NCBI GenBank assembly: GCA_965220745.1
Contig: CBDCQT010000006.1
Span: forward strand, 32,001-96,000
Origin: Alphaproteobacteria bacterium
GTDB lineage: Bacteria; Pseudomonadota; Alphaproteobacteria; UBA828
Direction: 5' to 3'
Length of the DNA stretch: 64,000 bases
Shown here: positions 2-63,223 of the stretch, piece by piece
Numbering within the stretch: position 1 is the stretch's first letter
Layout of the letters: the number at the start of each line of letters is the position of its first letter
Position numbers and translations under genes: made by a program
The notes under the pieces: generated by a model
Seen by the model: only the letters and a program-made list of their open reading frames with translations
Told to the model about the DNA's origin: nothing
Database searches by the model: none

Positions 2-1160
2 CTCGCCGGGCGGTCGGAGGATGCGGCGGAATCCGGGCGGGGCGAGTCTCGGCTGCGCGGGGATCGCAGCTATCTGATCACGGGAGGGCTCGGGGGGCTC
101 GGGCTGGAGGTGGCGCGCTGGCTGGCCGGGGCCGGCGCCGGGGCCATCGTGCTGAACGGTCGCCGCCCGCCCGACACGGAAGCCGAGGCGCTGATCGCGG
201 AGCTCCGGCAGGGCAGCGCCGAGGTGCGCGTCGAGATCGCCGACGTGACGGACGAGGAGGCTGTGGCGGGAATGCTCGCGCGGATCGACGCCGAGCTGCC
301 GCCGCTGGCGGGCGTGATCCACAGCGTGGGAGCGCTTGCAGACGGGGCATTGACGAACCAGGACTGGGAGCGCTTCGAGCGTGTGCTGGGGCCCAAGGCG
401 CTGGGGGCCTGGCGCCTGCACCGGGCGACGCTCGACCGGCAGCTCGACCTGTTCGTCCTCTTCTCCAGCCTGGCGGGCGTGGTCGGAAACCGCGGGCAGG
501 CCAACTACGCGGCGGCCAACGCCTTTTTAGACCAGCTGGCGCGGCACCGAAGGGCGCTGGGCCTGCCGGGCCAGGCCATTGCCTGGGGGACGTGGTCAGG
601 CATCGGCGAGGCCGAGGAGCAGCGCGAGCGCATCACGCCGCGACTGGCCGACTCGGCCGAGGAGTGGATGACTCCCGAGCAGGGCATCCGTGTCTTGGCA
701 CGGCTCGTGCGCGAGGATGTCGGGACCAGCGTGGCGGCGTTCGTCGACTGGTCGGCGCTTCCGTCGCGGGCGCCTTGGCTCGCAGATGTGGCAGGGCGCG
801 AGGAGCGCCGCGCCCTCGCCGCTCCGGACGATCTCCTGAAGCGGCTGGGGGGGCTCGCCCCCGGAGAGCGCCGCGAAGAACTGATCCGGCTCCTCGGGGA
901 ACAGCTGGTCGAGGTCCTGCGCCTGCGTTCCGCGCCGGCGCCCTCGGCCGGATTCTTCGAGCTGGGCATGGACTCGCTGATGGCGGTCGAGCTTCGCAAC
1001 CGCCTGAACCGGGCCTTCCGCGGCGCGTTCGTCGTCTCCAACACCGCGCTGTTCGACCATCCCGACATCGCCCGCCTGGCGGAACACCTCGCCGGCAAGC
1101 TAGCCGACGCTGTACCGGAGGCACCGAGGCTGAGAGCCTTTCCCGCCGTCCGCGGCCGCA
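2..1160 (+). other. PKS module 0 (partial): KR(Tyr)-ACP
   Basis: ITGGLGGLG; GQANYAAAN (Tyr codon 506-508); GMDSL at ~964. Confidence 0.93.
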
Positions 1161-4100
1161 GCGACGAACGCATCGCGATCGTGGGCATGGCCTGCCGCTT
1201 CCCCGGGGCGGAGGATGCCGAGGCGTTCTGGGCCCAGCTTCGCTCTGGCGCCGACCTAGTGACGAGGGGGCGTCCGGACGGGCTCTTCGTGGATGCCGAG
1301 ACGCAGGCGGCGCGGCCCTTCGGCGCCTATGTGGAAGGCCTCGACCGCTTTGACGCAGGCTTCTTCCGGATCGCCCCGGTAGAGGCGGAGCTGCTGGATC
1401 CCCAGCAGCGGATGCTGCTCGAGACCAGCTGGGCGGCGCTAGAGGACGCCGGCATCGCCCCGGACGGGCTGCGCGGCAGCCGGACCGGGGTGTACGGCGG
1501 GGTCGCGACGAGCGATTACCAAGAACTCACCGCTAGGAGTGTGGATGATCCGTCGACCAACCTCTACAGGGCCACCGGGGCCACGCCCTCGGCCGCGGTC
1601 GGCCGAGTAGCGTTCGCGCTCGGCCTAGAGGGTCCGGCCATCACGGTGGACACCGCGTGTTCCTCGTCGCTGGTGGCGCTGCACCAAGCGGCGGGGGCAC
1701 TCCGCGCAGGCGAGGTGGACCTTGCGCTGGCGGGAGGAGTGAACGCAATCCTTACGTCGACCGTTACCCAGATCTTTACCGACGCCGGCATGCTCGCCGC
1801 GGACGGACGCTGCAAGACCTTCGACTCGGCAGCCGACGGCTATGTACGAGGCGAGGGATGCGGGATGGTTGTGCTCAAGCGCCTTGCGGACGCGGAGGCA
1901 GCCGGAGACCGGATTCTCGCGCTTGTACGCGGATCGGCGGTGAACCAAGACGGCGCGAGCGCCGGCTTCACAGTTCCGAATGGTCCGGCCCAAGAGCGGG
2001 TGATCGAGGAGGCGCTTGCGCGGGCGGGCGTCGAGGCCTCCTCGGTGGACTACTTGGAGGCGCACGGCACGGGCACCGAACTGGGCGATCCGGTCGAAGT
2101 GGAGGCAGCGGCGGCGGTGTACGGCCGCGGCCGGAGCCCAGACCGCCCACTGCTGATGGGATCGGTGAAGACGAACGTGGGCCACCTAGAGGCGGCAGCG
2201 GGGGTAGCCGGGCTGATCAAGGCGGTGCTCGCGATCCGCTCCGGGGTGATTCCGCGCCACCTGCACTTCGCGCGGCCCAACCCGCGGACGGACTGGGAGA
2301 AGCTCCCCGTCCGGGTGACGTCGGAGGCGACCCCGTGGCCGGAGGCCGAGCGGCCGCGACGGGCCGCCGTCAGCTCCTTCGGATACTCGGGCACCAACGC
2401 CCATGTCGTGATCGAGGGCTACGCCGAGGATCGCGAACCTCCGCACTTTGAGATCCTCGCACCGCCGGAGTTGGGTCTGGATGACAGTGTCCCGCAGGCC
2501 GACGCTTCCCGCCAGCACCGCCTGCTCCCGATCTCGGCGAAGTCCTATGACGCCCTCCGGCAGCTGGCTGGCCAGTACCGGGCCGGACTCGCGGACGTTA
2601 CCTCGCTCGCCGACATGGCGTGGACGGCGAGCACGGGCCGGAGCCATTTCCGCTGCCGCTCTGCTCTCGTGTTTGGCGATCGCGCCTCGCTGCAGGAGCA
2701 GTTGGAAGGGTTGAGGCAAGGCGCAGGGGCGTCGCCAGCCGAAGGAAAGGTCGCCTTCCTCTACACCGGGCAGGGGAGCCAGTGGGCGGGCATGGGCCGG
2801 GAGCTCTATGAGGCCGAGCCGGTGTTCCGGGCAGTTCTGGACCGTTGCGAGGAAGTGTTCCGCGCAGAGCACGGCAAGGCGCTTCTCCCGGTGATCTTCG
2901 AGGGTTCCGAGCGGCTGGACCGGACCGAGTGGACGCAGCCAGCGCTCTACGCGCTGGAGAGCGGGCTGACCGCGCTGTGGGCCAGCGTGGGGGTGCGGCC
3001 CGACATCGTGTTCGGGCACAGCGTGGGAGAGATCGCGGCAGCGGCAGCGGCGGGAGCCCTCGATCTCGAAAGCGGGATGCGGTTCGCAACGCGCCGGGGC
3101 GCGCTGATGGGTTCGCTCTCGGCGGCAGGCGCGATGGCGGCGGTGTTCGCTTCGGCGGAGCGGGTCGCTGCCAGCCTTGACGGTACGGTCTGCCTGGCAG
3201 CCGATAACGGCACGCACCAGGTCGTGAGCGGGCCGGAGGCCGATATCGAGGCGCTCCTGCAGACATTCGAAGAGGACGGTCTGCGCGTGGAGCGCCTACG
3301 GACCAGCCAGGCCTTCCACAGCGCGCTGATGGATCCGGTGCTGGCGGAGCTGGAAGCGGCGGCTCCCAGGGCCTCGGCACCGTCGGTGCGACTGGTAAGC
3401 GACGTGAGCGGGCAGGTGCTGGAAGGGGCTCCCGACGGAGCGTATTGGCGGCGCCAGGCGCGCGAGCCGGTCCAGTTCGCGACAGCGCTGAGGACGCTGG
3501 CGGACCTGCAGGCGGGGCTGCTGCTGGAGATCGGGCCGCATGGCGTGCTGGGCCCGATGGCGGCGCTGGGCTGGCCGCGCAGCGAGGCACCCACGGTGAT
3601 CCCGAGCCAGCAGCGCGGCGGGAACGGGGACTTCGTCGGGGCGGTGGCGGGCGCGTACGAGGCGGGTCTGGAGATTGCCTTTGAGGGCCTGTTTGTCGGA
3701 GAGCGGCGGCGGCGGGTCTCGCTGCCGGCCTATCCCTTCCAGCGGGAGCGCTATTGGGTCTCTGCCTCTGCGCGACGCCGGTCAGATGAGGGGCACGTGC
3801 TGCTCGGCGTGCAGCGGGATTCCCCGGATGGCGAGCATTCCTTCGAGAGGCAGCTAGACAGTCGGGATCCGGCTTGGCTGGCCGACCACCGGGTGTTCGG
3901 CGAAGTCGTAGCGCCGGGTGCCCTCTACGCGGCGCAGGTGGTTGAAGCGCTCCGAGAGACACACCACGAACTTCCCGTCGTCCTTGAGGAGACCGCAATC
4001 ACGCGCCCGCTGGTGTTGTCGGGCGAGGAAGGCCGGCTGGTTCAAGTGGTGCTCGGCGAGGACAGCGCTTGGAAGGTCGTCAGCAAGGATGCGGGCGGGC

Positions 4101-7100
4101 AATGGGAGACACATGCCGCAGGCCGCTGGGCACCCCTCCCCACAACTGCATCCGACCGGGCAGATCTCCCTGAGCTGCAGGTCGGCCTTACCCAAGTGGA
4201 TGTGAAGGGCAAGTACCTCGAGCAAAAGCGGGATGGCACCGGTCTCGACTACGGGCCGGCCTTTCGCGGTCTGGCCCGGCTCTGGTCGGGCTCCGGCGAG
4301 GCACTGGGCGAGGTGCTGCTGCCGGCGGGAATGGAAAATCGGGTGCTGCTTGTCCATCCGGCACTGCTCGACGCCTGTTTCCAAGGGGTGGGTGGCATCG
4401 CCAAGCTGGCCGAAGCAGAGGGCACGTGGCTGCCGATCGGCTGGGACCGCTTCGTCTTGCACGGTGCGCTGCCGGATCGCGTCTTCTGCCGGGCACTCGA
4501 CCGCAGCGAGGGCGCGGGGACGCTCAGGGCCGATCTCTGGCTCTACACGGACACGGGCGAGGAACTGGCCCGCATCGAGGGCTTCGCGCTCAAACGCGTG
4601 AGCCAGAGCACCCTGCCGGGTGGGCGGGTCGAGGAGGCTCTCCACGAGGTGGTGTGGCGCGAAGGGGCGGCGGTGGGACTTTGGGAGGCAGACTTCCTCG
4701 CCGGGCCACGGGAGATCGAATCCGGCCTGGGAACGCTGGACGGATACCTTGAGGCGGAGGGCCGCGACGGGGCGTCGCTCGCAGCCCTGGGGCGGGAGCT
4801 GGAGCTTGAATCCCGTCGGGCGCTGCTGCGCGGATTCCGGGAGCTGGGGTGGGCGCCTAGCGCGGGGGACCGTTTCGAGACGGACCAGCTGCGCCGCCAG
4901 CTCAGGGTGACGGAGGATCACGGGCGGCTGTTCGGCCGCTTGCTGTCGGTACTGGAGGAGATGGGGCTCCTCGCCCGGGAGCCGGCTGGCGGCTGGCATG
5001 TTGCAACCGTGCCGGAAGCACCCCCAGAGCCCGAGGCGGCGCCGACCGACTCCGCAGCCGATTCCATCGAGCTGGGCCTGCTCCGCCGCTGCGGGGAGTC
5101 GCTCGCCGACGTGCTCCGCGGCCGCGCTGATGCGCTGGACCTGCTCTTCGGCGGAGAACCGGGAGCGGCGAGCCTGTACCGCGAGTCGGCCTCCGTGCGG
5201 GCGGTGAACCGCATGGCCGCCGACGGCTTGCGCGCGGCGGTCGCCGGGCTGCCCGAAGGCCGGCCGCTACGGGTGATCGAGGTCGGCGCGGGGACGGGCG
5301 CTACCACCGCCGCCCTCTTGGACGTCCTACCAACCGACCGGACCGAATACACCTTCACCGACATCTCGACCGGCTTCTTCGCGGACGCAAAGCGGGAATT
5401 CGGCGAGCGGGGCGCGGGCCTCCGATTGCGGGCGCTCGACATCGAACAGGATCCGGCGGATCAGGGGTTCGCTCCCCACGGCTACGACCTCGTGATCGCC
5501 GCGAACGTCTTGCACGCGACCCGAGACCTAGGTGAGACGCTCGCTCACTGCCGGCGCCTCCTGGCCCCGTCGGGCGTGCTGTTGGCCGTCGAGGAAACCA
5601 CTCGCAAGGAGTGGCTGGACCTAACCTTCGGACTGCTGCCCGGCTGGTGGCGCTTCCAAGACGCGTATCGCTCCGACTACACGCTGGTCGGGCCGCCCGT
5701 CTGGGAGCAGGCACTCGCGGACGCGGGATTTGCGGAAACGGCCCTGATCGAGGATCCAGCAGGAGCACTCCTGATCTTGGCGCGGGGGCCGTCGGAGGTG
5801 GAGACCGAAGGCGGGCTGTTCGTGCTGGCCGGAGAAGGCAAGCTGGGCACCGAGCTGGCGGCGGAGCTAGATCGCCGGGGCAGCCGAGCGATCCAGGGAC
5901 CTGCAGAGGCCGGCCGCAAGGCATGGCGCGGGTTCTTCGAGTCATTGCCCGGTGTACTTCCGCTGCGGGGAGTCGTTTATTTGGGCGGGGTGCGACGAGA
6001 CGGGCAGGGGCTGTCCGCGAGCGAGCTGCAGGCAGATCTGGAGGCGGCGGATGCGGGCGCGCTGGCGCTAGTCCAAGGGATGTCGGACGCTGGCGTGTCG
6101 CCGGTCAGCGGCACTTGGTTCGTGACCCGGGGCGGCCAAGTGATCGAGCGGGAGCGCTGCGGCGCACTCGTGGGGGCCTCGTTGTGGGGCTTCGCGAGCG
6201 TGGTGGACCTAGAGCACGGGGATCTGATGCCGCGCCTGCTGGACTTGGATCCCGAATCTCCTCCATCTGCTGGCACGGTTGCCGACGAAGTGCTCTTCCC
6301 TGACCGCGAAACACGCATCGCCCGCCGGGGCGGGCACCGCTTGGTGGCCCGGCTGACACGCCTCGCCGGGCGGGCGGGGGATTCGGCGGATCCCGGCCCG
6401 GGCGAGGCCCGGCTGCGCGGGGACCGCAGCTATCTGATCACGGGAGGGCTCGGGGGGCTCGGGCTGGAGGTGGCGCGCTGGCTCGCCGGGGCGGGAGCCG
6501 GGGCCATCGTGCTGAACGGACGCCGACCACCCGATGCGGAAGCCGAGGCGCTGATCGTCGAGCTCCGGGGGGGCAGCGCCGCGGTGCGCGTCGAGATCGC
6601 CGACGTGACCGACGGGGAGGCGCTGGCGGGTATGCTCGCACGGATCGACGCCGAGCTGCCGCCGCTGGCAGGCGTGATCCACAGCGTGGGCGCGCTCGCC
6701 GACGCGGCCTTGACGAACCAAGACTGGGAGCGCTTCGAGCAGGTGCTCGGGCCCAAGGCGCTGGGGGCCTGGCGGCTGCACCGGGCGACGCTCGACCGGC
6801 AGCTCGACCTGTTCGTTCTCTTCTCTAGCGTGGCGGGCGTTGTCGGGAGTCCGGGCCAGGCCAACCACGCGGCGGCCAACGCCTTCCTAGACCAGCTGGC
6901 GCGGCACCGGAGGGCGCTGGGCCTGCCGGGTCAGGCCATTGCATGGGGAGCGTGGTCGGGCATTGGCGAGGCCGAGGAGCAGCGCGAGCGCATCGCGTCA
7001 CGGCTCGCCAGATCGGGCGAGCGGTGGATGTCTCCCGAGCAGGGCATCGGTGCCTTGGCGCGGCTCGTGCGCGAGGACGTCGGAACCAGCGTGGCGGCGT

Positions 7101-10100
7101 TCGTCGACTGGTCGGCGCTCCCGGTCAGCGCACCTTGGCTGGCAGAGGTGCTGGAACGAGAGGAGGATCGCGCCATCGCCGATACAGAAGACTGGCAGCC
7201 GGGTCGGGCCGACGGCGAACTCTTGGGACACCTCCGCGGACTCGCCCATGGGAAGCGCCGGGAAGAACTGGTCCGGTTCCTCGGCGGACAGCTGGTCCAG
7301 ATCCTGCGCCTGCGCTCCGCGCCGCCGTCCGCGGCTGGATTCTTCGAGCTGGGCATGGACTCGCTGATGGCGGTCGAGCTTCGCAACCGCCTGAACCGGG
7401 CCTTCCGCGGTGCATTTGTCGTCTCCAACACCGCGGTCTTCGACCATCCCGATATCGCCCGCCTGGCGGAGCACCTTGCCGGCAAGATCGTTGGCGTGGC
7501 CCCAGAGGTGCCGCAGGTGCCAGGTTTGCCCGCTGTCCGGCGCTGGGACGACGACCGCATCGCGATCGTCGGCATGGCCTGCCGCTTCCCCGGAGCCGAG
7601 GATGCCGAGGCGTTCTGGGCGCAGCTTCGCTCCGGGGCCTATCTGGTGACGAGGGGGCGTCCGGACGGGCTCTTCGTGGATGCCGAGACAGAAGCGGCGC
7701 GCCCCTTCGGTGCGTATGTGGAAGGCCTCGACCGCTTCGACGCCGGCTTTTTCCGGATTGCCCCGGTCGAGGCCGAACTCCTCGACCCCCAGCAGCGGAT
7801 GCTGCTCGAGACAAGCTGGGCGGCCCTCGAGAACGCCGGGATCGCCCCGGACGAACTGCGCGGCAGCCGGTCCGGGGTGTACGGCGGGATATCGATGAAC
7901 GATTACCAGACGCTGGTCGCCAATCTGGGCGACGATCCGTCGAACGATATCTACAGGTCTACCGGCATCGCCGCCTCGACGGCGATCGGCCGGATCGCAT
8001 TCACGCTTGGCCTCGAGGGTCCAGCCATCAGCGTCGACACCGCATGTTCCTCGTCGCTGGTCGCGCTGCATCAAGCGGCAGCCGCGCTGCGCGCAGGCGA
8101 GGCGGATCTGGCGCTGGCAGGAGGCGTGAACGCGATCTTGACCTCAACCGCCACACGGATCTTCACCGACGCAGGCATGCTCGCCGCCGATGGACGCTGC
8201 AAGACCTTTGACGCGGCAGCAGACGGATTCGTACGGGGCGAGGGATGCGGGATGGTTGTGCTCAAGCGCCTTGCGGACGCGGAGGCGGCAGGGGACCGGA
8301 TCCTCGCGGTTGTGATCGGATCGGCCGTGAACCAAGACGGCGCCAGCGCCGGCCTGACCGTGCCGAACGGCCCGGCCCAAGAGCGCGTGATCGAAGAGGC
8401 GCTCGCACGGGCGGGCGTCGAGGCCTCGTCGGTCGACTACTTGGAGGCGCACGGCACGGGCACCGAGCTGGGCGATCCGGTCGAGGTGGAGGCGGCGGCT
8501 GCGGTGTACGGCCGCGGCCGGAGCGCGGACCGCCCGCTGCTGATCGGGTCGGTGAAGACGAACGTAGGCCACCTCGAGGCGGCGGCGGGCGTGGCCGGGC
8601 TGATCAAGGCGGTGCTCGCGATCCGTTCCGGGGTGATTCCGCGCCACCTGCACTTCGAACGTCCGAACCCGCGGATGGACTGGGAGCAGCTCCCCGTCCG
8701 GGTGACATTGGAGGCGACGCCTTGGCCGGAGGCGGAGCGGCCGCGGCGGGCCGCCGTCAGTTCCTTCGGGATCTCGGGCACCAACGCTCACGTCGTGATT
8801 GAGGGATACGCGGAGGAGCGCGAGCCGCCGCGCATCGAGCTGCCCGCACTGCCGGAGGCGGGTGCGGATGACCGCGTCCCGCAGGCCAACGCGCCCCGCC
8901 TGCACCGCTTGCTCCCGCTGTCGGCGAAGACCGAGGACGCGCTCCGACAGCTAGCCAGCCGGTACCGGGCCACGCTTTCGGACGACACACCGCTCGCTGA
9001 CATCGCATGGACGGCGAGCGCGGGCCGGAGCCATTTCCGCTTTCGCTCCGGTCTCGTGTTCAGCGATCGCGCCTCGCTGCAGGAGCAGTTGGAGGTAATA
9101 AGCCAAGGAGTCGTGGCGTCGCCGACGACAGGAACGGTCGCGTTCCTTTACACCGGGCAGGGGAGCCAGTGGGCGGGCATGGGCCGGGAGCTCTATGAGG
9201 CCGAGCCGGTCTTCCGGGCGGTCTTGGACCGGTGCGAGGAAGCGTTCCGCGCAGAGCGCGGCCGGGCGCTTCTCCCGGTGATCTTCGACGATGCCGGGCG
9301 GCTGGACCGGACCGAGTGGACCCAGCCGGCGCTGTACGCGCTGGAGAGCGGGCTGACCGCGCTGTGGGCAAGCGTGGGGGTGCGGCCCGACATCGTGTTC
9401 GGGCACAGCGTGGGAGAGATCGCGGCCGCCGCGGCCGCCGGCGCCTTTGATCTCGAGACCGGGATGCGGTTCGCCACGCGCCGGGGCGCGCTGATGGGTT
9501 CGCTCTCGGTGGCAGGCGCGATGGCGGCGGTGTTCGCTTCGGCGGAGCGGGTCGCTGCCAGCCTTGACGGTGCGGTGTGTCTGGCGGCCGATAACGGCAC
9601 GCACCAGGTCGTGAGCGGGCCGGCGGCCGATATCGAAACGCTGCTGAAGAGGTTCGAAGAGGACGGTCTGCGCGTGGAGCGCCTGCGGACCAGCCAGGCC
9701 TTCCACAGCGCGCTGATGGATCCGGTGCTGGCGGAGCTGGAAGCGGCGGCGCCCGCGGCCTCGGCACCGTCGGTGCGACTGGTGAGCGATGTGAGCGGGC
9801 AGGTGCTGGAAGGGGCTCCCGAGGGAGCGTACTGGCGGCGCCAGGCGCGCGAGCCGGTCCAGTTCGCGACGGCGCTGCGGACGCTGGCAGAGTTGCAGGC
9901 GGGGCTGCTGCTGGAAATCGGGCCGCATGGCGTGCTGGGCCCGATGGCGGCGCTGGGCTGGCCGCACGGGGAGGCGCCCACGGTGATCCCGAGCCAGCGG
10001 CGCGGGGGGAACGGGGACTTCGTCGAGGCGGTGGCGGGCGCGTACGAGGCGGGTCTGGAGATTGACTTCGAGGGCCTGTTTGCCGGAGAGCGGCGGCGGC

Positions 10101-37100: not shown

Positions 37101-40100
37101 TCGCCGCGCTGCCGGAAGGCCGGTCGCTGCGGGTGATCGAGGTCGGTGCAGGGACGGGCGCGACCACCTCCGCCGTCCTAGACATCCTGCCGTCCGACCG
37201 AACCGAATACACCTTCACGGACATCTCGACCGGCTTCTTCCCGGACGCGGAGCGGAAGTTCGGCGAGCGGGGCGTGGACCTTCGCCTCCTAGCGCTTGAC
37301 ATCGAACGGGATCCGGCGGATCAGGGGTTCGCGCACCACGGCTACGACCTCGTAATTGCCGCGAACGTCCTGCACGCGACCCGCGACTTAGCTGAAACGC
37401 TCACCCACTGTCGGCGGCTCTTGGCCCCGTCGGGCGTACTGGTGGCCGTCGAGGAAACCGTCCGGAAGCAATGGCTGGACCTGACCTTCGGACTGCTGCC
37501 CGGCTGGTGGCGCTTCCGGGACGAGTATCGCTCCGACTACGCACTGGTCCCAGCCCCTGTCTGGCACCAAGCCCTCGCCGACACCGGATTCGTCGGGATG
37601 TCTCACGTCGAGCTTCCGTCAGGGGCGCTCCTGCTCTTGGCGCGGGGGCCGTCGGAGGTGCAGGCTAGACCGGGTCGTTTTGTGCTGGCTGGAGCGGGAG
37701 CATTCCCCGAAGCACTCGAGAGAGAACTCCGCGAGCGGGGACAGGATGTGGTGCCGGGCCCGGCGGATGGGCGACGGACGTCATGGCGATCGTTCTTCAG
37801 GACGCTGGACGGCGAGGTGCCGCTGTGGGGCGTGGTGCATTTGGAAGGCATGCGGCGAGATGCGGCGAAGCTTTCGACCGCAGATCTGGCAGGGGACGCG
37901 GAGGAGATCGGGGCGAGCGCTCTGGCGCTGGTCCAAGGCATGTCGGACGCCGGCGCGGCACCCGTGAACGGCACTTGGTTCGTGACCCGAGGTGGTCAGG
38001 TGATCGACCGGGAGCGCTCCGGCGCCCTCCCCGGAGCCATGCTCTGGGGCTTCGCGAGCGTGGTGGACTTGGAGCATGGGGATCTGACCCCCCGCCTGCT
38101 GGACCTGGACCCCGAGGCCCCCCCGTCCGCCAGCGCGCTGGCCGACGAGTTGCTCTTCCCGGACCGGGAGACGCGCGTCGCCCGACGGGGCGGAGCCCGA
38201 CTGGTCGCTCGGCTCACGCGCGTCGCCCGACGGGGCGAACTCCCGGAGGACAATGCGTGGCGCTGGGCGGCCGATCCGGATGGAGTACTCGACGCGGTGC
38301 GAATGGAGGATGCCTCGGAGGAGCCTGGTCCAGGCGAGGTTCGGGTGCGGCTCGAGGCGGCCGGGGTGAACTTCCACGACGTAATGGTGGGGATGCAGGT
38401 CGTGGACGCCGATCAGCGGCTTGGCAGCGAGTTGTGTGGCCGGGTGGTGGAGGCAGGTGAAGGTGTGCGCGAATTCCAAGCAGGGGACCGGGTGGTGGGA
38501 TTCGCCGGCGGAGCGTTCGGGCCCGAGGTGATCACCCGCGCCGAACACGTGGTGCCGTCACCGCCAAGGCATTCGGCGGCGGAGTTGGCAACCATCCCGG
38601 TGGCATTCGTGACCGCAGCACTTGCCTTCGAGCATTCGGGTCTCGGAACGGGCGCACGGATTCTGATCCATGCGGGAACGGGAGGCGTGGGTCACGCGGC
38701 GATCCGGCTGGCACGAGCTGCGGGACTCGAGGTGTACGCGACTGCCAGCGCACCGAAGCAGGAGTACCTGCGCTCGCTCGGTGTGCAGGCGGTGTTCGAC
38801 AGCCGCTCCACCGCCTTCGGCAAGCAGATCTTGGAAGCGACCGGAGGAGCCGGAGTGGCGATGGTGCTGAACAGCCTCTCCGGGGAGGGTTTCATTGAGG
38901 CCAGCCTGTCGTGTCTCGCGCCAGGCGGATGCTTCGTCGAACTCGGGAAGCGCAACATCCGCAGCGCAGGCGAGATGGCGGCCGACCGCCCGGACGTCCG
39001 TTACCTCGTCGTGGCGCTGGACCGGCTCCTGCGGGAGGAACCGGAGCGGCTCGGGACAGTTCTGAAGGGCGTGATGGAGCGCGTCGCGTCGGGGGAGATC
39101 GAACCGCTGCCAGTCACCCGCTGGCCGCTCGCGGAGGCGGGCAGCGCGCTCACCGAGTTGCAGGCGGCTCGCCATATCGGGAAGGTCGTGCTCGTGCCCT
39201 CGGCGCTGGCTGCGGGCCGGCTGCGCGGGGACCGGAGCTATCTGATCACGGGGGGGCTCGGAGGGCTCGGGCTGGAGGTGGCGCGCTGGCTTGCCGCAGC
39301 CGGAGCGGGGAGCATTGTCCTGAACGGACGCCGTCCGCCGGACACGGCAGCCGCAGGTGCCGTTGCGAAGCTGCGTGAGGGCGGTGCCGAGGTGCGCGTG
39401 GAGATCGCCGACGTGACGGACGAGGAGGCGGTGGCGGAGATGCTCGCGCGGATCGACGCCGAGCTGCCGCCGCTGGCGGGCGTGATCCACAGCGTGGGAG
39501 CGCTCGCCGACGCGGCCTTGACGAACCAAGACTGGGAGCGCTTCGAACGCGTGCTCGGGCCCAAAGCACTGGGGGCTTGGCGACTGCACCGCGCGACGCT
39601 CGACCGGGAGCTCGATCTGTTCGTCCTCTTCTCCAGCCTGGCGGGCGTGGTCGGGAGCCCGGGCCAAGCCAATCACGCGGCAGCCAACGCCTTCCTCGAC
39701 CAGCTGGCGCGGCACCGAAGGGCGCTGGGCCTGCCGGGTCAGGCCGTTGCGTGGGGACCGTGGTCGGGCATCGGCGAGGCCGAGGAGCAGCGCGAACGGA
39801 TCGCGGCGGGGCTCCCCCTCCACGGCGAGGAGTGGATCGCTCCCGAGCAGGGCATCCTCGCTTTGGCACGGCTCGTGCGCGAGGACGTCGGAACCAGTGT
39901 GGTGGCGTCCGTCGATTGGCCCACGCTCTCGGCGCGAGCACCTTGGCTCGCAGAAGTGCAGGGATCCTCGGAGATCCGCTCCTCCGGAGATCCGGAGGAC
40001 CTGATACGCCAGCTCCGGGGACTCGCGCCCGGGGAACGCCGGGAAGAACTGATCCGGTTCCTGCAAGAACAACTGGTCCAGATCCTGCGCCTGCGCTCGG

Positions 40101-43100
40101 CCCCGTCGCCCTCGGCGGGATTCTTCGAGCTGGGCATGGACTCGCTGATGGCGGTCGAGCTTCGCAACCGCCTGAACCGGGCCTTCCGCGGCGCGTTCGT
40201 CGTCTCCAACACCGCGGTCTTCGATCATCCCGACATCGCCCGTCTGGCCGAACACCTTGCAGGCAAGCTTCCCGGTGCGTCACCGGAGCCAGCGCGGGTG
40301 CGGGCCTTGCCCGCCGTCCGCCACCAACACGACAAACGTATCGCGATCATCGGCATGGCCTGCCGCTTCCCCGGGGCACCGGATGCCGAGGCGTTCTGGA
40401 AGCAGCTTCGCGCCGGAGCTGATTTGGTGACGAGGGGGCGTCCAGACGGGCTTTTCGTGGATGCCGAGACAGAAGCGGCCCGCCACTTCGGCGCGTATGT
40501 GGAGGGTCTCGACCGCTTCGACGCGGGGTTTTTCCGGATCGCCCCGGTCGAGGTGGAACTGCTAGACCCCCAGCAGCGGATGCTGCTCGAGACAAGCTGG
40601 ACGGCACTTGAGGACGCCGGGATCGCGCCGGACGGTCTGCGCGGCAGCCGAACGGGGGTCTACGGCGGGATCTCGACAAACGATTTTCACGCGCTCGTCA
40701 GCCAGACGGTTGGTGATCCGTCGACGATCCTCTACAGGTCCACCGGTGTCTCCTTCTCGACCGCGATCGGCCGGATCGCCTTCGCGCTCGGCCTCGAGGG
40801 TCCTGCCATCACGGTGGACACCGCGTGCTCGTCGTCGCTGGTCGCGCTGCATCAGGCGGCGGCGGCGCTCCGCGCAGGCGAGGCGGATCTCGCGCTGGCA
40901 GGCGGAGTGAACGCGATCCTGACGTCGAGCGCCACCAGGATCTTCACTGAGGCCGGCATGCTCGCCGCGGATGGACGTTGCAAGACCTTCGACGCGGCGG
41001 CCGACGGCTTTGTGCGCGGCGAGGGATGCGGCATGGTTGTGCTGAAGCGCCTTGCAGACGCGGAGGCGGCGGGAGACCGGATCCTCGCGGTTGTGCTCGG
41101 ATCGGCTGTGAACCAAGACGGCGCGAGTGCCGGCCTGACCGTGCCGAACGGCCCGGCCCAGGAGCGGGTGATCGAGGAGGCGCTTGTGCGGGCGGGCATC
41201 GAGGCCTCCTCGGTGGACTATCTGGAGGCGCACGGCACGGGCACCGAACTGGGCGATCCGATCGAGGTGGAGGCGGCGGCTGCCGTGTACGGCCGCGACC
41301 GGGATCTGAACCGCCCCCTGCTGATCGGGTCCGTGAAGACGAACGTGGGCCACTTGGAGGCTGCGTCCGGCGTGGCCGGGCTGATCAAGACGGTGCTCGC
41401 GATCCGCTCTGGCCTGATTCCGCGACACCTACACTTCGAGCGGCCCAACCCCCAGATGGACTGGGAGCAACTTCCTGTCCGGGTGACGTCGGAACCGACC
41501 CCCTGGCCGGAGGCCGAGCGGCTGCGGCGGGCCGCCGTCAGCTCCTTCGGGTACTCGGGCACCAACGCCCATGTCGTGATCGAGGGATACGCCGAAGAGC
41601 GCGAGCCGCCCCGCATCGAGCTGCCCGCGCTGCCGGAGTCGGGTGCAGATGACCGCGTCCCGCAGGCCGACGCGCCCCGCCAGCATCGGCTGCTCCCGCT
41701 CTCGGCGAAGTCCGAGGGCGCGCTTCGTCAGCTGGCCGGCCGCTATCGAGCCGCCCTCTCGGAAGACATGCCGCTCGCCGACATGGCCTGGACAGCGGGG
41801 GTGGGGCGGAGCCATTTCCGCTACCGCTCCGGCCTCGTATTCCAAGACCGGGCCTCGCTGGCAGAGCAGCTGGAAGTGGTGAGCCAGGGGGCCGCGGCGT
41901 CGCCCAGCGCGGGAAGGGTCGCCTTCCTTTACACCGGCCAGGGCAGCCAGTGGGCGGGCATGGGCCGGGAGCTTTATGCGACCGAGCCGGTCTTCCGAGC
42001 GGTTCTAGACCGGTGCGAAGAGGTCTTCCGAGCAGAGCGCGGCAGATCTCTTCTCACCGTGATCTTCGAGGATTCCGAGCGGCTGGAGCGGACCGAATGG
42101 ACGCAGCCGGCACTCTACGCGCTGGAGAGCGGGCTTACGGCTTTGTGGGCCAGCGTCGGGGTGCAGCCCGATGTCGTGTTCGGGCACAGCGTGGGAGAGA
42201 TCGCGGCGGCCGCGGCCGCCGGTGCCTTTGACCTCGAGACCGGGATGCGGTTCGCCACGCGCCGGAGCGCGCTGATGGGTTCGCTTCCCGATGGAGGTGC
42301 GATGGCGGCGGTGTTCGCCACGCGCGACCGCGTCACAGCCGCGCTGGAAGGTGCGGTGTCGCTGGCAGCGGACAACGGCGCGCACCAAGTCGTGAGCGGG
42401 CCGGCGGCCGACATCGAGGCGCTCCTGAAGCGCTTCGAAAAGGACGGTCTGCGAGTGGAGCGACTGCGGACCAGCCACGCCTTCCACAGCGCGCTGATGG
42501 AGCCAGTGCTGGCGGATCTGGAAGCGGCGACCCCCAAGGCCTCGGCCCCATCGGTGCGGTTGGTGAGCGATGTGAGCGGGCGCGTGCTGGAAGGCGCACC
42601 CGACGGAGCGTACTGGCGGCGTCAGGCGCGCGAGCCGGTCGCCTTCGCCGCCTCGACCGCAACGCTGGCGGAACTCGGAGCCCGGATCTTGGTTGAGATC
42701 GGCCCCGACGCCGTGCTTGGGCCGATGGCGGCGATGACGTGGCCCGAGGGCGAATCCCCAACGGTGGTGCGGAGCCTGCGACGGGATGGCAGCGGGGACT
42801 TCACTGCCGCGGCGGGCGCGATGTTTGAGGCCGGAGTCGACCTTTCCTTCGAGGGACTGTTCGCCGGAGAACGCCGCCGCCGAGTGGCACTCCCAACCTA
42901 TCCCTTCCAGCGCAGGCGCTACTGGTTGACAACGCCGTCCCGCCGCCGGATCGACGACGGTCATCCGCTGTTGGGTGTGCGCCGGGATTCGCGAAGCGGC
43001 GAGGTCTCCTTCGAGACCCAGATGTCCGCCGGGAACCCCGCCTGGCTGGCGGACTACGTAGTCGTGGGCGAAGTGATCGCGCCGGCAGCCCTGTTCGCTG

Positions 43101-46100
43101 GGCAGGTGATCGAAGCACTCGGAGAGACCGGGAATGACTCGGCGGTCTTCCTGGAACAGGTTCAGATCCATCATCCCCTGGTGCTGGAGCCGGGCGACGG
43201 GCGCGGCGTCCAGGTCTTCATCGGGCCGGACGGCCGCTGGGAAGTGGCCAGCCGGGAACCTCGAGGCGGGACTTGGCAGCTTCACGCTGACGGGAGCCTA
43301 GGGAGGAGCACGGTTGAAGAGGACCGCCTAGACCTCCAGACCGTGGAGCGGCGGCTATCCGCCTCGAGCGCGGCCGACTTCCGCAACGGGATGGCACAGC
43401 AGGGCATCGTCCTGGGACCGGCCTTCGGGGGACTCTCCGCCTTCGCGGCGGACGACAAGAGCGCTTGGGGCCGGGTTACGCGCCCCGCGCAACTGGCCGG
43501 AGACCGCCTGCGGGCCCATCCGGCGCAGCTGGACGCCTGTTTTCAGGTCGTGGCGGGACTCTTGGCCGGGCGGGTCGGCAACCGCCACTATCTCCCAATC
43601 GGGTGGAGCCGCCTCTGGCTCGCCGCACCGCTGCCCGAGCAGATCTTCTGCTACGCAAGGCTCGAAGAGGTCGGGGAGGAGACGGCCACGGCGGATCTCG
43701 CCCTTTACACTCCCGATGGCGTGCGCTGCGGTCACGTGGCCGGCTTCGCGCTCAAGCGCGCCACCCGGGCAGCGATGCTGGGCGGTCGGGTGGATCACCT
43801 GCTGCACAGCGTCGTTTGGCGGCGAAGCCCCAGCCTCCCAGGCCCCCGGGAAGCGTCGACCGCGGCCGATCCAGATGCGCCCGCGACGGGTGCGCGCCCG
43901 ATGGTGCCGGCGGAGGCAGAACCGCACCGCGGCGTGTTCGTCGTGTCCGGAAACGGGGCCGTCACGGAGGAGCTCGTGCGCGAGCTTGCGGACCGGCGGC
44001 AGACCGTCGTACCCGGCCCCTCCGAAAGCGGGAATCGGCAGGCTTGGCGCGCACTCTTCGAGGCGCTTCCATCTTCAGCTCCGCTCCGCGGCGTGGCTTA
44101 CCTCGCGGGGCTCAGGGGCGACGGACAGTACCTCGGAACCGAGGAACTCCGGCAGGAGCTTGAGGCCGCCGCGTCTGGAGCTCTGGCCTTGGCGCAGGGG
44201 ATGTGGGACGCAGGAGCGCGGGCGGTGAACGGGGTCACGTTGGCAACCCGTGGAGGCCAGGTCCTAGGGGGAGAGCGCACCGGCTCCCTAGCGGGTGCCG
44301 CGCTCTGGGGCCTGGGCGGTGTGGTCGGAGTCGAGAATGCGGACCTTCGTCCTCGCTTAGTGGACTTCGATCCGGACGCGTCGATCCCGGCCGCGATCCT
44401 GGCAGACGAACTGATGTTCCCGGACCGGGAGAACCGGATTGCGTGGCGAAACGGGGTGCGCCAAGTGGCCCGTCTGGTTCGGACCGACGGACCGGGAGAC
44501 AAGGCCCAGAGTGCCCGCGGGGCGCCCCAGCCGCCGGCAAGTCGCCTGAGGCCGGACCGGAGTTACCTCGTGACTGGAGGTCACGGGGGCATCGGCCTGC
44601 AAGTGGCTGGCTGGCTGGCGGATGCAGGAGTCGGCGAGATCGTTCTAAACGGACGGCGGGAGCCGACGCGGCGGGCCCGAACGGTGATAGGGGAGTTGCG
44701 TCGGCGCGGCGTGACGGTCCGTGTGGAGGTCGCAGACCTCACCGACACGAATGCGGTTGACGCCATGCTCGCACGGGTTGACGCCGAGATGCCCCCGCTC
44801 GGCGGCATTTTCCACTGCGCGGGCGTGCTCGCCGAGGCGGCGCTCAGCGACCAAGACTGGGCACGTTTTGAGACCGCGCTAGGTCCGAAGGCTCTGTCAG
44901 CGTGGCATCTTCACCGAGCGACGCTGGATCGCGAACTTGAGCTCTTCGTGCTCTTCTCGAGCCTCTCCGGGGTGGTCGGCAGCCTCGGCCTAGCGAATTA
45001 CGCCGCGGCGAACGCGTTCCTGGACCAGCTGGCGAATCATCGCCGTGCCCTTGGGCTTGCAGGACAGGCGATCGCTTGGGGTCGTTGGTCTGAGGTCGGC
45101 ATGGCGGAGAAGCAGCGCGGCCAGAGCGAAGCGCGGCTGAACGCACTCGGAGGCAGCTGGATCGCGCCCGAACAGGGTCTCCGGATCCTCGACCGCGTGG
45201 TTCGGGACGACTTGGGGGCACGGGTCGTCGCCGACATGGGCCGATCGACGCTGCCCCGCCTTCCGCTTTTTCCGCTGCTTGACGAGATCCGTGCGTCTGA
45301 ACGGTCCCTAGTGGACACTGTGCCTGCAAAGTCTGCCGCCGCCCTCGGGCGCCTTGAGAAAGCGGCACCCGCGCAACGCGAGAAGCTCGTGGCCGATTTT
45401 CTGGGGAATGAGGTGCGGTCCCTGCTGGGACTTGATGCGCCGCCGGACCATGACGTTGCCTTCTCGGAACTCGGCATGGACTCTCTGATGGCCGTAAATC
45501 TCCGCCAACGCCTGAATGCGGCGCTGCCGCGCGAAGTGGTCTCGCCCACCGCCCTTTTCGAGCATCCCGATGTCGGCCGACTGACGGGCCACCTGATCTC
45601 CGAACTCTTCCCGGCCGGTGATTCACCGTCACCGACCCCGACCGTCTCGGAGCGACCGGATTCCGCGCATGTGTCGAGTTCCCTCCCGCGCACGCCAGGC
45701 TTAGCCCTTGCGCACGAAGGTGGTGACCGAGTCGCGAGCCCCCCACGTGCGTCGAGACCCAATATCGACGACGACCGCGTTGCAGTCGTAGGCATGGCCT
45801 GCCGACTTCCCGGCGGCACCGACCTCGCGGAATTCTGGCGCACGCTCCGCGAGGGCCGGAGCGCCGTGACCGACGGTCGGCCCGAGAAGCTCGGCGGCAC
45901 CGGCGACACCCGTCACGCTGGAGCCTACGTTCCGGAGATCGACACGCTGGACGCCGAATTCTTCGGTGTCGCTGCCGCCGAAGCCCGCTGCATGGACCCG
46001 CAGCAGCGGATGCTGCTCGAGGTTAGCTGGACGGCTCTGGAACATGCGGGGATCGATCCGCGCTCGCTGAAGGGCAGCCGCAGCGGCGTTTTTGCGGGAG

Positions 46101-48169: not shown

Positions 48170-48651
48170 GCGGAGTGCCTGCACAAGAAAGACCCCGGGG
48201 ATTCGAGCGCTTCGCACGCGCCAACCCGCCTCCGTCACCATCCGCGGGGACGCCATCGAGATCCGGCTCGGCTACCGAGTTCACGATTTCCTCCTCCGCG
48301 CCGACGGGTTCGACCGCAAGCAGTCCCGCACCCCGGCTCGGAACCCGCAAGCTCCGTTTGGTCGTCCGATACCACGCCCGCTGGCAGTCTCCGTCAGCCA
48401 CCTCCGCGCCCCGGACTCCGCCTGTCGACTCCACCCGCTCCCTGGCGCTAGAATGTCACTTCACGAACTCACCGTGGGTGTTCAGGCTGGACTCCAGCGT
48501 CTCCATTCGGAACGCGTGGACGCCCTGCCGGCGGCTCGCGCTGCTTGCATGTCAGGCAGCTGTGCGGCACACTGCCCGTCGAGCGCAGGGTGGGACCAAC
48601 GACCAGCGGTCGCCCCGCTGCACCCACCGAGATCCGGGGACGAGCCCAACG

Positions 48652-49674
48652 ATGAGTTCCAAGCGTGCCGGACCACCGCCAGCCTCGAACTCGGTCGAGG
48701 CATCCAGTGAGCAGAAGACGGGACTCGCAGCAGTGGGGCAGACGATAGATGCGCGCGGCCACCAGTCTTCCGACCTAGACGTTCCCCGACCCGCATCCGT
48801 CGTCCGTGCCAAGCTCGAGGACGGCGTGTCCGTGCCGGTTCGGCGTTACGGAAATCCAGAAGGTCCGCGCCTTCTGATGAGCCACGGAAACGGGCTCGCG
48901 ATCGACCTCTACTATCCGTACTGGTCACTCCTGCTAGAGCAGTTCGACCTGCTGCTCTTCGATCTGCGCGGTCACGGCCGCAATCCTCCGGGACCGATGG
49001 CCGGGCACACCATACCGGCATTCTCGAGAGACTTGGAGACGATCGGCCAGACGGTGGACCGCTGCTTCGGTGTAAGGCCGAGGGCCGGTGTATTCCATTC
49101 CGTGTCGTGTCTGGCGGCCGCACTGTCACCTTCCCTGGGGGCCTCCTATTCGGCACTCGTGCTGTTCGACCCGCCGCTCTACCCGGCGGGGATGGGGATC
49201 GCTCACCGGATTCTCGAATCCAGCTGCAGCCGCGCTGCGGCCAGAACCCGGATCCGAGTTCACCGGTTTCGCAGCGAGCGGGACTTCGTCGATCTGATGA
49301 AGGTGCAGCCGGCGATGGCGCGGCTCCTTCCAGGCGTGCCCGAGCTCATGGCCCGCACGACACTTCGAGCGGATGGGCAAGGGAGCTATGTATTGCGGTG
49401 TCAGCCCGAGTTCGAAGCGAGAATTCTCGATTCGGTACCGAGGTTCTCGCGCTTGGTGGATCCCGATTTGCTGCCGCTGCCGGTGAAAGTGATCGCAGCG
49501 GACCCGCATCTCCAGCACCATTTCTTCCCCCCGTGCAACTTGGAGGGCACCAAGCTCGTTGACTTCGATTCGCTTTCGGACACGACTCATCTCGCACAGC
49601 TCGAGAGGCCGGAAGAGTGTGCGCGGCTCACGATCGACTTCCTCGGGCGAATCGGCCTCTGCAAGACCGCCTGA
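48652..49674 (+). CDS. Alpha/beta-fold hydrolase; candidate discrete chain-release enzyme or acyltransferase for the PKS
   Basis: MSHGNG oxyanion region, FDLRGHG, nucleophile elbow GVFHSVS, C-terminal THLAQLERPEE. The start is uncertain: ATG 48652 chosen, and the track's 48175 extension looks non-coding. Confidence 0.85.
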   Translation: MSSKRAGPPPASNSVEASSEQKTGLAAVGQTIDARGHQSSDLDVPRPASVVRAKLEDGVSVPVRRYGNPEGPRLLMSHGNGLAIDLYYPYWSLLLEQFDLLLFDLRGHGRNPPGPMAGHTIPAFSRDLETIGQTVDRCFGVRPRAGVFHSVSCLAAALSPSLGASYSALVLFDPPLYPAGMGIAHRILESSCSRAAARTRIRVHRFRSERDFVDLMKVQPAMARLLPGVPELMARTTLRADGQGSYVLRCQPEFEARILDSVPRFSRLVDPDLLPLPVKVIAADPHLQHHFFPPCNLEGTKLVDFDSLSDTTHLAQLERPEECARLTIDFLGRIGLCKTA

Positions 49675-49828
49675 GACTCTACCCCGATTGCGTCACTCGC
49701 AACGGTGATTTCGACCGAAGTCTGGCTCTCCCGGCGAGTCTGATGCTGTAATTACTTGCAAGGTCCCTCTCCATCTGCAGTCCCAATCGCACGCCCGAGC
49801 GCTTGCTGAACAGCGTGCGCCCCCCGCA

Positions 49829-50315
49829 GGCGGCCTTGGACGGCCTGTCTGTGATCCGCACCAGCCAAGGTGATCTGTCGGCGGAAGATGTTGTGCGCAG
49901 CTACAAGCAGCTGACCCGGGTCGAGAGCACCTTCCGCCACCTCAAGACTGTCGACTTGCAGGTGCGCCCGATCCGCCACCACAGCGAGCGCGTGCGGGCA
50001 CACCTGCTGCTGTGCCTGCTGGCGTGCTACGTGGAATGGCGCCTGCGCCAAGCTTTGGCTGAGCTGCTGTTTGAAGACGAAGACTTAGCGGGCTGGCGGG
50101 CGCGGTAAGCAGTGCAAGCAAAGAAGCACCGCCGTCGCACGGCGGAGGGCCTGGAACTGCACAGCTTCCCGAAATTGCTGCAGATGCTGGGCACGCGCTG
50201 TCGCCATCAATGCCGCCCGCAGGGCGACGCCAACGGCGTCACGATGGAGCGGCTGACGGAGGCGAGCGCCTTGCAGGAGCGTGTGCTAGCGCGTCAGGAT
50301 TCGGTTAGAGATTGA
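49829..50315 (+). pseudogene. IS1634-like DDE transposase, C-terminal remnant
   Basis: AALDGLSVIRTS...YKQLTRVESTFRHLKTVDLQVRPIRH..RVRAHLLLCLLACYVEW, an internal stop at 50108, then RRTAEGLELHSF. The N-terminus is missing. Confidence 0.8.
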
Positions 50316-50325
50316 GCATCTGTTG

Positions 50326-50391
50326 ATTTAAACGGTAAGACGCATTCCCCGCACGGATGAATTGCCGGTTCGACTCCGGCCCGTGGCTCCA
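50326..50391 (+). tRNA. tRNA-like remnant lacking the 5' acceptor strand (Thr-like 3' end)
   Basis: T-arm GCCGG-TTCGACT-CCGGC (50364-50380), 3' acceptor strand CCGTGGC-T-CCA, anticodon-like arm CATTC-CCCGCAC-GGATG (50343-50359), D-loop-like AAACGGTA. No GCCACGG 5' strand upstream. Confidence 0.65.
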
Positions 50392-50410
50392 AAGTCATTC
50401 AGGCCAACGC

Positions 50411-50650: not shown

Positions 50651-50703
50651 CGTTTGGGAATTATGTACCAAAATCAGCAGGCCCGGCGCTAGAGGGGCGG
50701 CAA

Positions 50704-50952: not shown

Positions 50953-50967
50953 GGTTCGATTCCTCCG

Positions 50968-52394: not shown

Positions 52395-52395
52395 T

Positions 52396-63200: not shown

Positions 63201-63223
63201 TTCCCCATCCTATGGATGGGGAA
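63201..63223. repeat. Perfect 10-bp inverted repeat
   Basis: TTCCCCATCC-TAT-GGATGGGGAA. Confidence 0.7.

Follow-up and report, generated by a model that had tools for sequence, protein, structure and literature searches.

A giant polyketide synthase gene and its neighbours

The DNA analysed here, referred to as the window, is a stretch of 64,000 nucleotides that corresponds to positions 32001-96000 of the 143.7-kb contig C6 of its source assembly (G000), a metagenomic bin labelled as an alphaproteobacterium. A single open reading frame (ORF list; positions 2-48169, + strand), open at its 5' end, encodes 16,055 amino acids (aa) of a modular polyketide synthase (PKS), and is followed by the gene of an alpha/beta hydrolase. 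In a random frame of 70% GC content a stop codon is expected approximately every 52 codons, and the log10 probability of meeting none in 16,055 codons is about -135, so the length of the open reading frame (ORF) is not due to chance. The GC content of the window is 70-72% across the PKS gene and 64-65% behind it.

Module by module, Pfam identified seven complete modules in the window, built from ketosynthase (KS), acyltransferase (AT), dehydratase (DH), C-methyltransferase (cMT or MT), enoyl reductase (ER), ketoreductase (KR) and acyl carrier protein (ACP) domains; six of the seven contain an MT and one contains an ER. The layout was the canonical cis-AT one of serial KS-AT-(reductive)-ACP modules, each with its own AT. 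An earlier annotation of the window (the original prediction) had described a giant single-polypeptide cis-AT PKS with one ORF of more than 16,000 aa, at least seven complete cis-AT modules, a cMT in six of them and an ER in one. All of this was borne out, and the gene turned out to be larger than the window. Modules in the following list are numbered along the whole ORF of contig C6; the rest of M05 and modules M01-M04 lie on the same contig upstream of the window.

2-1156, + strand: KR-ACP tail of M05 (Pfam KR 23-199, PP-binding 300-363); KR site Tyr (TAC 506-508)
1157-7543, + strand: M06, KS-AT-DH-cMT-KR-ACP, 2,129 aa; AT motif QAFH; KR site His (CAC 6866-6868)
7544-13930, + strand: M07, KS-AT-DH-cMT-KR-ACP; KR site His (CAC 13253-13255)
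13931-20317, + strand: M08, KS-AT-DH-cMT-KR-ACP; KR site Tyr
20318-26671, + strand: M09, KS-AT-DH-cMT-KR-ACP; KR site Tyr
26672-33025, + strand: M10, KS-AT-DH-cMT-KR-ACP; KR site His (CAC 32375-32377)
33026-40324, + strand: M11, KS-AT-DH-cMT-ER-KR-ACP, 2,433 aa; ER at ~38303-39205 with LIHAGTGGVG; KR site His (CAC 39674-39676)
40325-45751, + strand: M12, KS-AT-DH0-KR-ACP, 1,809 aa, without MT; DH His replaced by Tyr (TAC 43055); KR site Tyr
45752-48169, + strand: terminal KS0-AT0 didomain, 805 aa and stop; KS Cys at 46253, His1 replaced by Ser at 46655, His2 replaced by Asn at 46775
48652-49674, + strand: alpha/beta hydrolase, 340 aa, probable chain-release enzyme; HGNG, FHSVS elbow, C-terminal THL

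The five ER-less cMT modules M06-M10 (1157-33025) are 2,118-2,129 aa long each. Upstream of the window no stop interrupts the PKS frame before contig C6 begins at base 1, which gives an ORF of 26,722 aa that is still truncated at its 5' end. This ORF contains 13 KS active-site motifs, 12 ATs with GHSVG, 13 ACP serines, 11 MTs (a regular expression found 10, and the MT of M01 was added by Pfam) and 2 ERs. It comprises 12 complete modules, M01-M12, and a terminal KS-AT lacking key catalytic residues. The 12 modules are 70-90% identical among themselves, and the terminal didomain is 53-54% identical to them. The missing start of the gene was not found on any other contig of the G000 assembly. The best explanation of these observations is that the window holds the 3' 48 kb of one gene of at least 80 kb.

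Complete orthologues and selection

Species-representative genomes were scanned with the terminal didomain. Three metagenome-assembled genomes (MAGs) with the label Bryobacterales contained matches, at 95, 87 and 81% identity, as did two loci of one Rhodothermales MAG (75%). A search for the KS family revealed open frames of 29,674 aa with 15 KSs in G001, a chromosome-scale Bryobacterales MAG, and of 27,735 and 27,729 aa with 14 KSs each in G002, a chromosome-scale Rhodothermales MAG. G003, also a Bryobacterales MAG, and G004 contained only contig-limited pieces of the giant gene. When a representative protein library was searched with the same didomain, mostly multi-KS proteins of up to ~7,900 aa were matched, and the usable match was a 1,952-aa fragment of 84% identity. 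With 27.7-29.7 thousand aa, the complete orthologues rank with the longest polypeptides of bacteria. The literature searched, which was not exhaustive, contained no description of a giant PKS of Bryobacterales. The original prediction had regarded the enzyme as a SupA-like PKS that had apparently been rebuilt; the orthologues show instead that the giant gene forms a family of its own which is conserved.

The G001 ORF and one of the two G002 ORFs were translated for comparison. The order of domains in the G001 protein is as follows.

KS(Cys>Ser)-AT(Ser>Gly)-ACP; two KS-AT-DH-cMT-ER-KR-ACP modules; ten KS-AT-DH-cMT-KR-ACP modules; KS-AT-DH0-KR-ACP; KS0-AT0

The N-terminal KS of the complete orthologues (L052:301-3324 in G001, aa 1-995 in G002) retains both His but has Ser instead of the active-site Cys. 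The AT behind it has Gly in place of Ser, and an ACP with GLESL comes next. Judged by these residues, the KS(Ser)-AT0-ACP segment looks like an odd loading module. Up to the KS of M11, the motif positions of the C6 ORF are shifted against those of G001 by an almost constant 3,272-3,284 aa. In the FastTree KS tree nine of the 13 G000 KSs paired directly with the G001 KS two places further on (support 95 or higher for six of the nine), and the pairing of the other four was not resolved. Orthologous modules of G000 and G001 are 81-91% identical. Module content varies: the G001 module orthologous to M11 has no ER, and the G002 protein has one module fewer. From collinearity with the complete orthologues we infer an enzyme of ~30,000 aa with 13 extension modules; the missing 5' part, ~3,300 aa, would consist of a KS(Cys>Ser)-AT(Ser>Gly)-ACP loading module and one KS-AT-DH-cMT-ER-KR module.

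The ratio of nonsynonymous to synonymous substitution rates (dN/dS) between G000 and G001 was 0.19-0.28 in all 13 module pairs, including the terminal didomain (0.235 for its KS part and 0.217 for the rest). Purifying selection acts on every module.

The two giant copies of G002 lie in inverted orientation on its contig C1 (1979663-2062870 and ~3102100-3185700) and are 98.5% identical over 12.6 kb. Their GC content is 65.6%, that of the flanks 53-55%, and they are found among IS66, IS605 and DDE transposase genes. The gene was likely acquired horizontally by this Rhodothermales genome.

Catalytic residues of the modules

The KSs of M01-M12 have the Cys-His-His set of residues. All 12 ATs carry GHSVG together with an xAFH-type motif (seven HAFH, four QAFH, one HGFH), which is a signature of malonyl-CoA specificity according to PMC3908369. 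Since all ATs are of the malonyl type, the methyl branches must come from the cMT domains. An MT is present in 11 of the 12 modules and absent from M12; all 11 MTs retain motif I, the His of LHAT and an acidic pair (EE) behind motif III. The catalytic His of the DH is kept in 10 of 12 modules. It is replaced by Phe in M04, upstream of the window, and by Tyr in M12, and the latter change recurs in G001 and G002. Only M01 and M11 contain an ER. The NADPH motif, Lys, Ser and Asn are present in all 12 KRs. The LxD motif of the KRs is LAD, or LAE in M12, which we take, by the rule of Keatinge-Clay, to mark B-type KRs preceding E-double bonds.

His-type ketoreductases

In six of the 12 KRs (M03, M04, M06, M07, M10 and M11) the catalytic Tyr is replaced by His. 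Four of the eight KRs in the window are of this type, a feature missed by the original prediction and one that, taken alone, would argue against a polyene product. The closest solved KR is that of mycocerosic acid synthase, MAS (9d2y, E 8.6e-44; 5bp4), and in the alignment to solved KRs the His fell on the catalytic Tyr of MAS (GQGAYAAAN in MAS, GQANHAAAN in the giant).

The function of such KRs can be judged from smaller relatives. A protein search with the terminal didomain yielded 3,300-3,500 aa proteins in 109 of the 120 matches listed. Precomputed Pfam assignments gave these one-module relatives KS, AT, DH, MT, ER, KR and ACP domains, and hmmsearch found two KSs in each of the 18 proteins that were cut into domains. 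Their source MAGs carry the labels Bryobacterales, Nitrospira, Chloroflexi, Dehalococcoidia, Gemmatimonadetes, and Delta- and Gammaproteobacteria. Each has a single KR, and the residue at the Tyr site was His in 101 of the 109, Tyr in none, and the pattern was unmatched in the remaining eight. An ER motif was present in 35 of the 40 that were inspected. The His form must work in these proteins, because otherwise their ER would be useless. A one-module protein encoded on contig C5 of G000 also has a His-type KR.

Among the giants, His-type KRs account for 6 of 12 in G000, 8 of 13 in G001 and 5 of 12 in G002, and for four of the seven KRs in ER-containing modules. The His or Tyr state was identical in 11 of the 12 orthologous pairs of G000 and G001, and dN/dS was 0.153 for the His type (six pairs) and 0.183 for the Tyr type (five pairs). 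This suggests that the His-type KRs are probably active, and that His is the ancestral, functional state of KRs in this lineage. No description of a His-type KR in a PKS was found in the literature searched; the search was not exhaustive and does not prove that none has been published.

The terminal didomain, the hydrolase and proposed chain release

The terminal KS keeps its Cys but has lost both His in all three giant genomes, with Ser and Asn in their place in the window. By contrast, the second KS of the one-module proteins retained Cys in 18 of 18, the first His in 17 of 18 and the second His in 18 of 18. The terminal AT has GKGAG in place of GHSVG (Ser to Gly, position 47627), lacks the specificity region and approximately half of the domain, and ends exactly at the post-AT linker YPFQRERHWIS. 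The KS0-AT0 assignment of the original prediction thus agrees with the residues. A KS0 is by definition a KS that does not decarboxylate malonyl-ACP. The terminal KS-AT is therefore expected to be unable to condense or load, and the Cys of the KS could still be acylated. The absence of a thioesterase (TE) had also been noted earlier, and indeed no thioesterase family was among the Pfam families listed for the module pieces; for the final 3,055 aa of the protein, the list of families included neither a TE nor a reductase (R) release domain.

The adjacent alpha/beta hydrolase of the original prediction is real as an Abhydrolase_6 protein, but the 499-aa ORF assigned to it (48175-49674) is probably too long. 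Homology of this ORF to the Rhodothermales orthologue begins at residue 148, the Bryobacterales orthologue is a 340-aa ORF with an ATG start, and DNA contigs of close relatives have a 1-nt insertion behind position 48330. For these reasons the gene likely spans 48652-49674. The hydrolase is 75-99% identical among the four genomes G000-G003, and is encoded beside the giant in each. It lies 3' of the giant at a distance of 0.5 kb in the window, 2.8 kb in G001 and 5 kb in G002; transposase genes or IS elements are found between the two in G001 and G002, and the linkage is still kept. The hydrolase beside the second G002 copy is fragmentary. By sequence the enzyme is a generic member of its fold: matches to solved structures were weak (best E 6e-4), Atlas clusters were those of generic alpha/beta hydrolases, and NCBIfam gave no match above the cut-off. 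A structure prediction from a four-row alignment had a mean pLDDT of 29.4 and was unusable. We infer from the conserved linkage and the lack of a TE that the hydrolase releases or transfers the chain. The finished chain would either pass to the Cys of the terminal KS0 or be taken directly from the last ACP, and the hydrolase would then release or transfer it.

The predicted product and its alternatives

On balance we favour, with modest confidence, the view that the gene encodes a non-iterative cis-AT PKS of a fatty acid synthase (FAS)-like, 'sup'-related lineage of sponge symbionts, that it belongs to a Bryobacterales-like host, and that its product is a collinear methylated polyene. Each module would add C2 from malonyl-CoA, the cMT would methylate the beta-keto intermediate at its alpha carbon, and the joint action of a DH and a B-type KR would yield an E-2-methyl-enoyl unit. 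The His-type KRs are taken to be active here. Assuming a 5' end like that of G001, the starter would be acetate, followed by two saturated 2-methyl units. M02 and M03 would then add two 2-methyl-enoyl units, M04 with its dead DH a 3-hydroxy-2-methyl unit, M05-M10 six 2-methyl-enoyl units, M11 a saturated 2-methyl unit and M12 a 3-hydroxy unit. The predicted product has a C28 backbone and 12 methyl groups (C40H64O4), and is saturated near the omega end, followed by a diene, a hydroxyl, a conjugated hexaene, a saturated unit and a 3-hydroxyl, i.e. 3,19-dihydroxy-dodecamethyl-octacosa-6,8,10,12,14,16,20,22-octaenoic acid. The window would account for the 3-hydroxy-4,6,8,10,12,14-hexamethyl-6,8,10,12,14-pentaenoyl end. 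The pentaene and the 3-hydroxyl coincide with the chain end drawn in the original prediction. The methyl groups, which had been placed at C4, C6, C12 and C14 only, do not: the cMTs of M08 and M09 keep their motifs, which adds methyls at C8 and C10. By the collinearity rule, a polyene is a reasonable reading of the module order.

Several points weigh against it. Skipping, stuttering and trans-acting enzymes often make a PKS depart from collinearity. The 5' end, and hence the starter and the chain length, is modelled on orthologues that are only 81-91% identical and that differ in the placement of ERs, G001 lacking the ER of M11 and G002 having one module fewer. If the His-type KRs were inactive, half of the modules would leave a ketone, and to our knowledge no PKS KR with His at the Tyr site has been assayed. 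No matching polyene is known to us from sponges. A trans-acting ER could be encoded elsewhere in the host genome, and a 14-module relative from a symbiont of Discodermia dissoluta, reportedly described by Schirmer et al. in 2005 (AEM 71:4840), is said to be predicted to make a saturated multimethyl-branched fatty acid. A product of that kind would arise here if the enoyls of the ER-less modules were reduced in trans by a free-standing enzyme, by the ERs of M01 or M11, or by the ER of a partner subunit. An ER motif occurs in most of the one-module relatives inspected, for which saturated mid-chain-branched fatty acids have been proposed in PMC4245539, and the bin contains many MDR-type reductase genes, though these are of another organism. 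However, the scanned flanks held no ER gene: this covers 10 kb on each side of the G001 giant, 10 kb upstream plus five downstream ORFs for the G002 giant, and the 15.8 kb downstream of the giant in the window. These flanks contained genes for transposases and a recombinase, a gene of the nitrilase family and, in the case of G002, a phosphopantetheinyl transferase (PPTase) gene. Moreover, the ER was cleanly lost from 10 of the 12 modules. Where ERs remain, their NADPH motif is intact and their positions are conserved: G001 and G002 have one in each of the first two extension modules, and a late module carries one in G000 and G002. This pattern fits position-specific reduction. We regard complete saturation in trans, by whichever of these ERs, as rather unlikely.

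If the His-type KRs were catalytically dead, six modules would leave alpha-methyl-beta-keto groups, and the enzyme would make a polyketone that is reduced only in part and could undergo cyclisation. The replaced residue is the catalytic Tyr of short-chain dehydrogenases/reductases (SDR), its position was confirmed by the alignment to MAS, and loss of this Tyr is generally known to inactivate ordinary PKS KRs. This explanation is nevertheless improbable: nearly all of the one-module relatives have a His-type KR as their only KR and most of those inspected have an ER motif, His is found in ER-containing modules of the giants, the other catalytic residues and the NADPH motif are kept, dN/dS is no higher than for the Tyr type, and the KR state is almost invariably shared by G000 and G001. 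Least probable of all, and hardly to be entertained, is that the long ORF is an artefact of assembling near-identical repeats, or a decaying relic that yields no product. The modules do resemble each other closely, short-read contigs break and mis-join within repeats, and contig C6 terminates inside the gene. But an identical module order is present in the independent, chromosome-scale assembly of G001, G002 holds two copies of 27,735 and 27,729 aa, no stop interrupts the 26,722 codons of C6, and the low dN/dS of all 13 module pairs indicates that the gene is maintained by selection and is not an assembly artefact.

Host, habitat and expression

The RpoB protein of the bin is alphaproteobacterial: it is 92% identical to that of a genome of the same genus, 72-77% to proteins labelled Rhodospirillales or Alphaproteobacteria, and 55-60% to those of G001-G004 over the longest matched segments (44-70% over all segments). 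Among 49 genomes of the bin's order the giant was found only on contig C6 of G000, and the one-module PKS type was present in 13 of 20 further members of the bin's genus. The 116-136 kb region of C6 gave short matches of at most 74% with the 20 genomes of the same genus, apart from fragments of less than 100 bases of up to 90%; two stretches of it, 11.8 and 5.1 kb long, matched G003 at 96%, and its matches to G001 and G004 were 73-88% identical. Positions 48170-64000 of the window were 95-99% identical to G003 contigs. The bin is rated 5.18% contaminated. Because C6 outside the PKS is 95-99% identical to G003 and has only paralogue-level matches in the genus of the bin, it is most likely a Bryobacterales-like acidobacterial contig in the wrong bin. 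Transfer of the gene across phyla into an alphaproteobacterium, which the difference between RpoB (55-60%) and PKS (81-95%) identities might have suggested, was rejected, as the rest of C6 is 96% identical to G003. For users of these data it matters that the contig carrying the giant gene appears to sit in the wrong genome bin.

Contig C5 of G000 carries, at 214284-226641, a one-module PKS of SupA layout (3,455 aa, His-type KR, first His of the second KS kept), with a convergent alpha/beta hydrolase gene (224694-225593) and an Sfp-type PPTase gene (226345-226641) as neighbours. The idea that it is a paralogue in the same organism as the giant was rejected, since C6 matches G003 and not the genus of the bin; the C5 cluster and its PPTase most likely belong to an organism other than the host of the giant.

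The 3' 6-kb stretch was found in 15 runs of four studies, labelled as marine metagenome, with a coded organism or as sponge metagenome. Eight of the 15 runs (six DNA, two RNA; two studies) bear the sponge-metagenome label. One study contributed two sponge-metagenome DNA runs in which contigs (4.9 and 3.5 kb long) matched positions 45632-49687 at ~97.5%. Two RNA libraries of the same samples contained small contigs on 45348-47568 and, in the hydrolase, on 49340-49517, which is a weak hint that the 3' end and the hydrolase are transcribed. These contigs may also represent DNA carry-over, which was uncontrolled; many parts of the gene were left uncovered by them, which says nothing either way.

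Other features of the window

Downstream of the hydrolase lies a stretch (51776-53187) with two ORFs of 198 and 247 aa that have no Pfam or NCBIfam match. It recurs at 76-77% identity in at least seven places of G001 and is probably an unannotated insertion element. A group II intron occupies 53636-55446 (Rfam group-II-D1D4-6 at 53636-53860, 166.8 bits; reverse transcriptase/maturase ORF at 53965-55446), and relatives of it are scattered in G001. Directly behind the intron is a gene for an MscS-type mechanosensitive channel (55480-56895) that looks ordinary. Positions 57478-62739 encode a 1,753-aa fusion of DEAD/Helicase_C and UvrD-type helicases, of which an 87-88% identical copy was found in one genome of the bin's alphaproteobacterial genus (G043), and G003 has another that is 97% identical. 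Such a distribution points to a mobile or defence gene common to these genomes, or else to additional errors of binning.

Comparison with known systems

The enzyme type is already known, and the gene adds a member to its family. SupA, reportedly described by Fieseler et al. in 2007 as the one-module 'sponge symbiont ubiquitous' PKS, is said to have the layout KS-AT-DH-MT-ER-KR-ACP-KS-AT. In sponge microbiomes, few biosynthetic genes are as abundant as those of sup-type PKSs, and we know of none with a proven product. The family is described in PMC3908369 and PMC4245539.

Phylogenetic trees of KS domains were built with FastTree (169 rows cut to 126, with 14 ordinary large PKSs represented by KS2 and KS3 only, and 18 one-module proteins) and with a quick IQ-TREE run (73 rows drawn from the 126, 10 one-module proteins). 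The giants, the one-module proteins and a few close multi-KS proteins formed one KS clade, which comprised 96 of the 126 rows with support 96 in the FastTree tree, and was separated as 55 rows from 18 (16 KSs of ordinary modular PKSs and 2 root rows) with SH-aLRT 99.2 in the IQ-TREE tree. In both trees all 13 KSs of the C6 ORF fell inside the clade that holds the one-module proteins. The internal KSs of the giants formed a subclade of their own, which lay outside the one-module KSs and had other multi-KS proteins as its sister group. Among the matches to the terminal didomain, the member names of the clusters of 10 relatives and the amplicon-sized KS relatives, none bore the name SupA or sup; the PKS relatives were named 'SDR family oxidoreductase' or 'polyketide synthase'. 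The description of the enzyme as SupA-like in the original prediction therefore stands as far as the clade with one-module proteins of the reported SupA layout is concerned, but no named SupA reference anchors it. The giant likely belongs to the PCR-defined sup clade, an assignment based on architecture.

Several features are shared with the SupA-type one-module proteins: malonyl ATs combined with an integrated cMT, His at the Tyr site of the KR, an extra C-terminal KS-AT with a Ser-less AT, a homologous alpha/beta hydrolase as neighbour (44% identical in the case of the C5 gene), and occurrence of the stretch in sponge metagenome runs. The differences lie in the number of modules: sup-type PKSs are described as unusually small, with a single one plus KS-AT, versus at least 12 (13 expected) in the giant; with so many serial modules the giant is presumably not iterative. 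In the sup type a full DH-ER-KR loop leading to saturated chains is expected, whereas 10 of the 12 modules of the giant have no ER. Their second KS keeps Cys-His-His in 17 of 18, whereas the terminal KS of the giant is without both His. Finally, the orthologues of the giant carry an extra N-terminal KS(Ser)-AT0-ACP.

The PKS of the Discodermia symbiont, which is said to be a very large multimodular enzyme with sponge-specific KSs, resembles the giant by its reported description: the 14-15 KSs of G002 and G001 fit its number of modules. By the same description it differs in its predicted saturated product, as opposed to the mostly unsaturated chain read here. MAS and Pks12-type FAS-like PKSs also make methyl-branched lipids, and the best NCBIfam matches for KS-AT were Pks13, Pks2 and PKS_plus_SDR, all below the cut-offs. 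MAS, however, has one iterative module, uses methylmalonyl-CoA and has a Tyr-type KR, whereas the giant has serial modules and obtains its methyls from cMTs. The (CH=C(CH3))n motif of aureothin- and spectinabilin-type PKSs is like the one predicted for the 2-methyl-enoyl repeats of the giant; those enzymes differ in using methylmalonyl-CoA and module iteration, in making only 2-4 such units and in ending in a pyrone.

Three leads were not found described in the papers searched: the His-type KR, the presence of a dead KS-AT cap at either end, and a size of nearly 30,000 aa. It is a speculative, though possible, extension of these data that sponge-associated Acidobacteria, together with a Rhodothermales lineage that took up the gene, use a ~30,000-aa polypeptide to make a C40, carotenoid-sized, per-methylated conjugated polyene lipid by polyketide chemistry alone, and that the sup lineage as a whole runs on the His-type KR. 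Whether His can replace Tyr in a KR is a simple enzymological question, and its answer decides how all these clusters should be read. Compared with the one-module proteins, the giant family represents a collinear, readable version of sup chemistry, with a prediction that can be tested by mass and UV.

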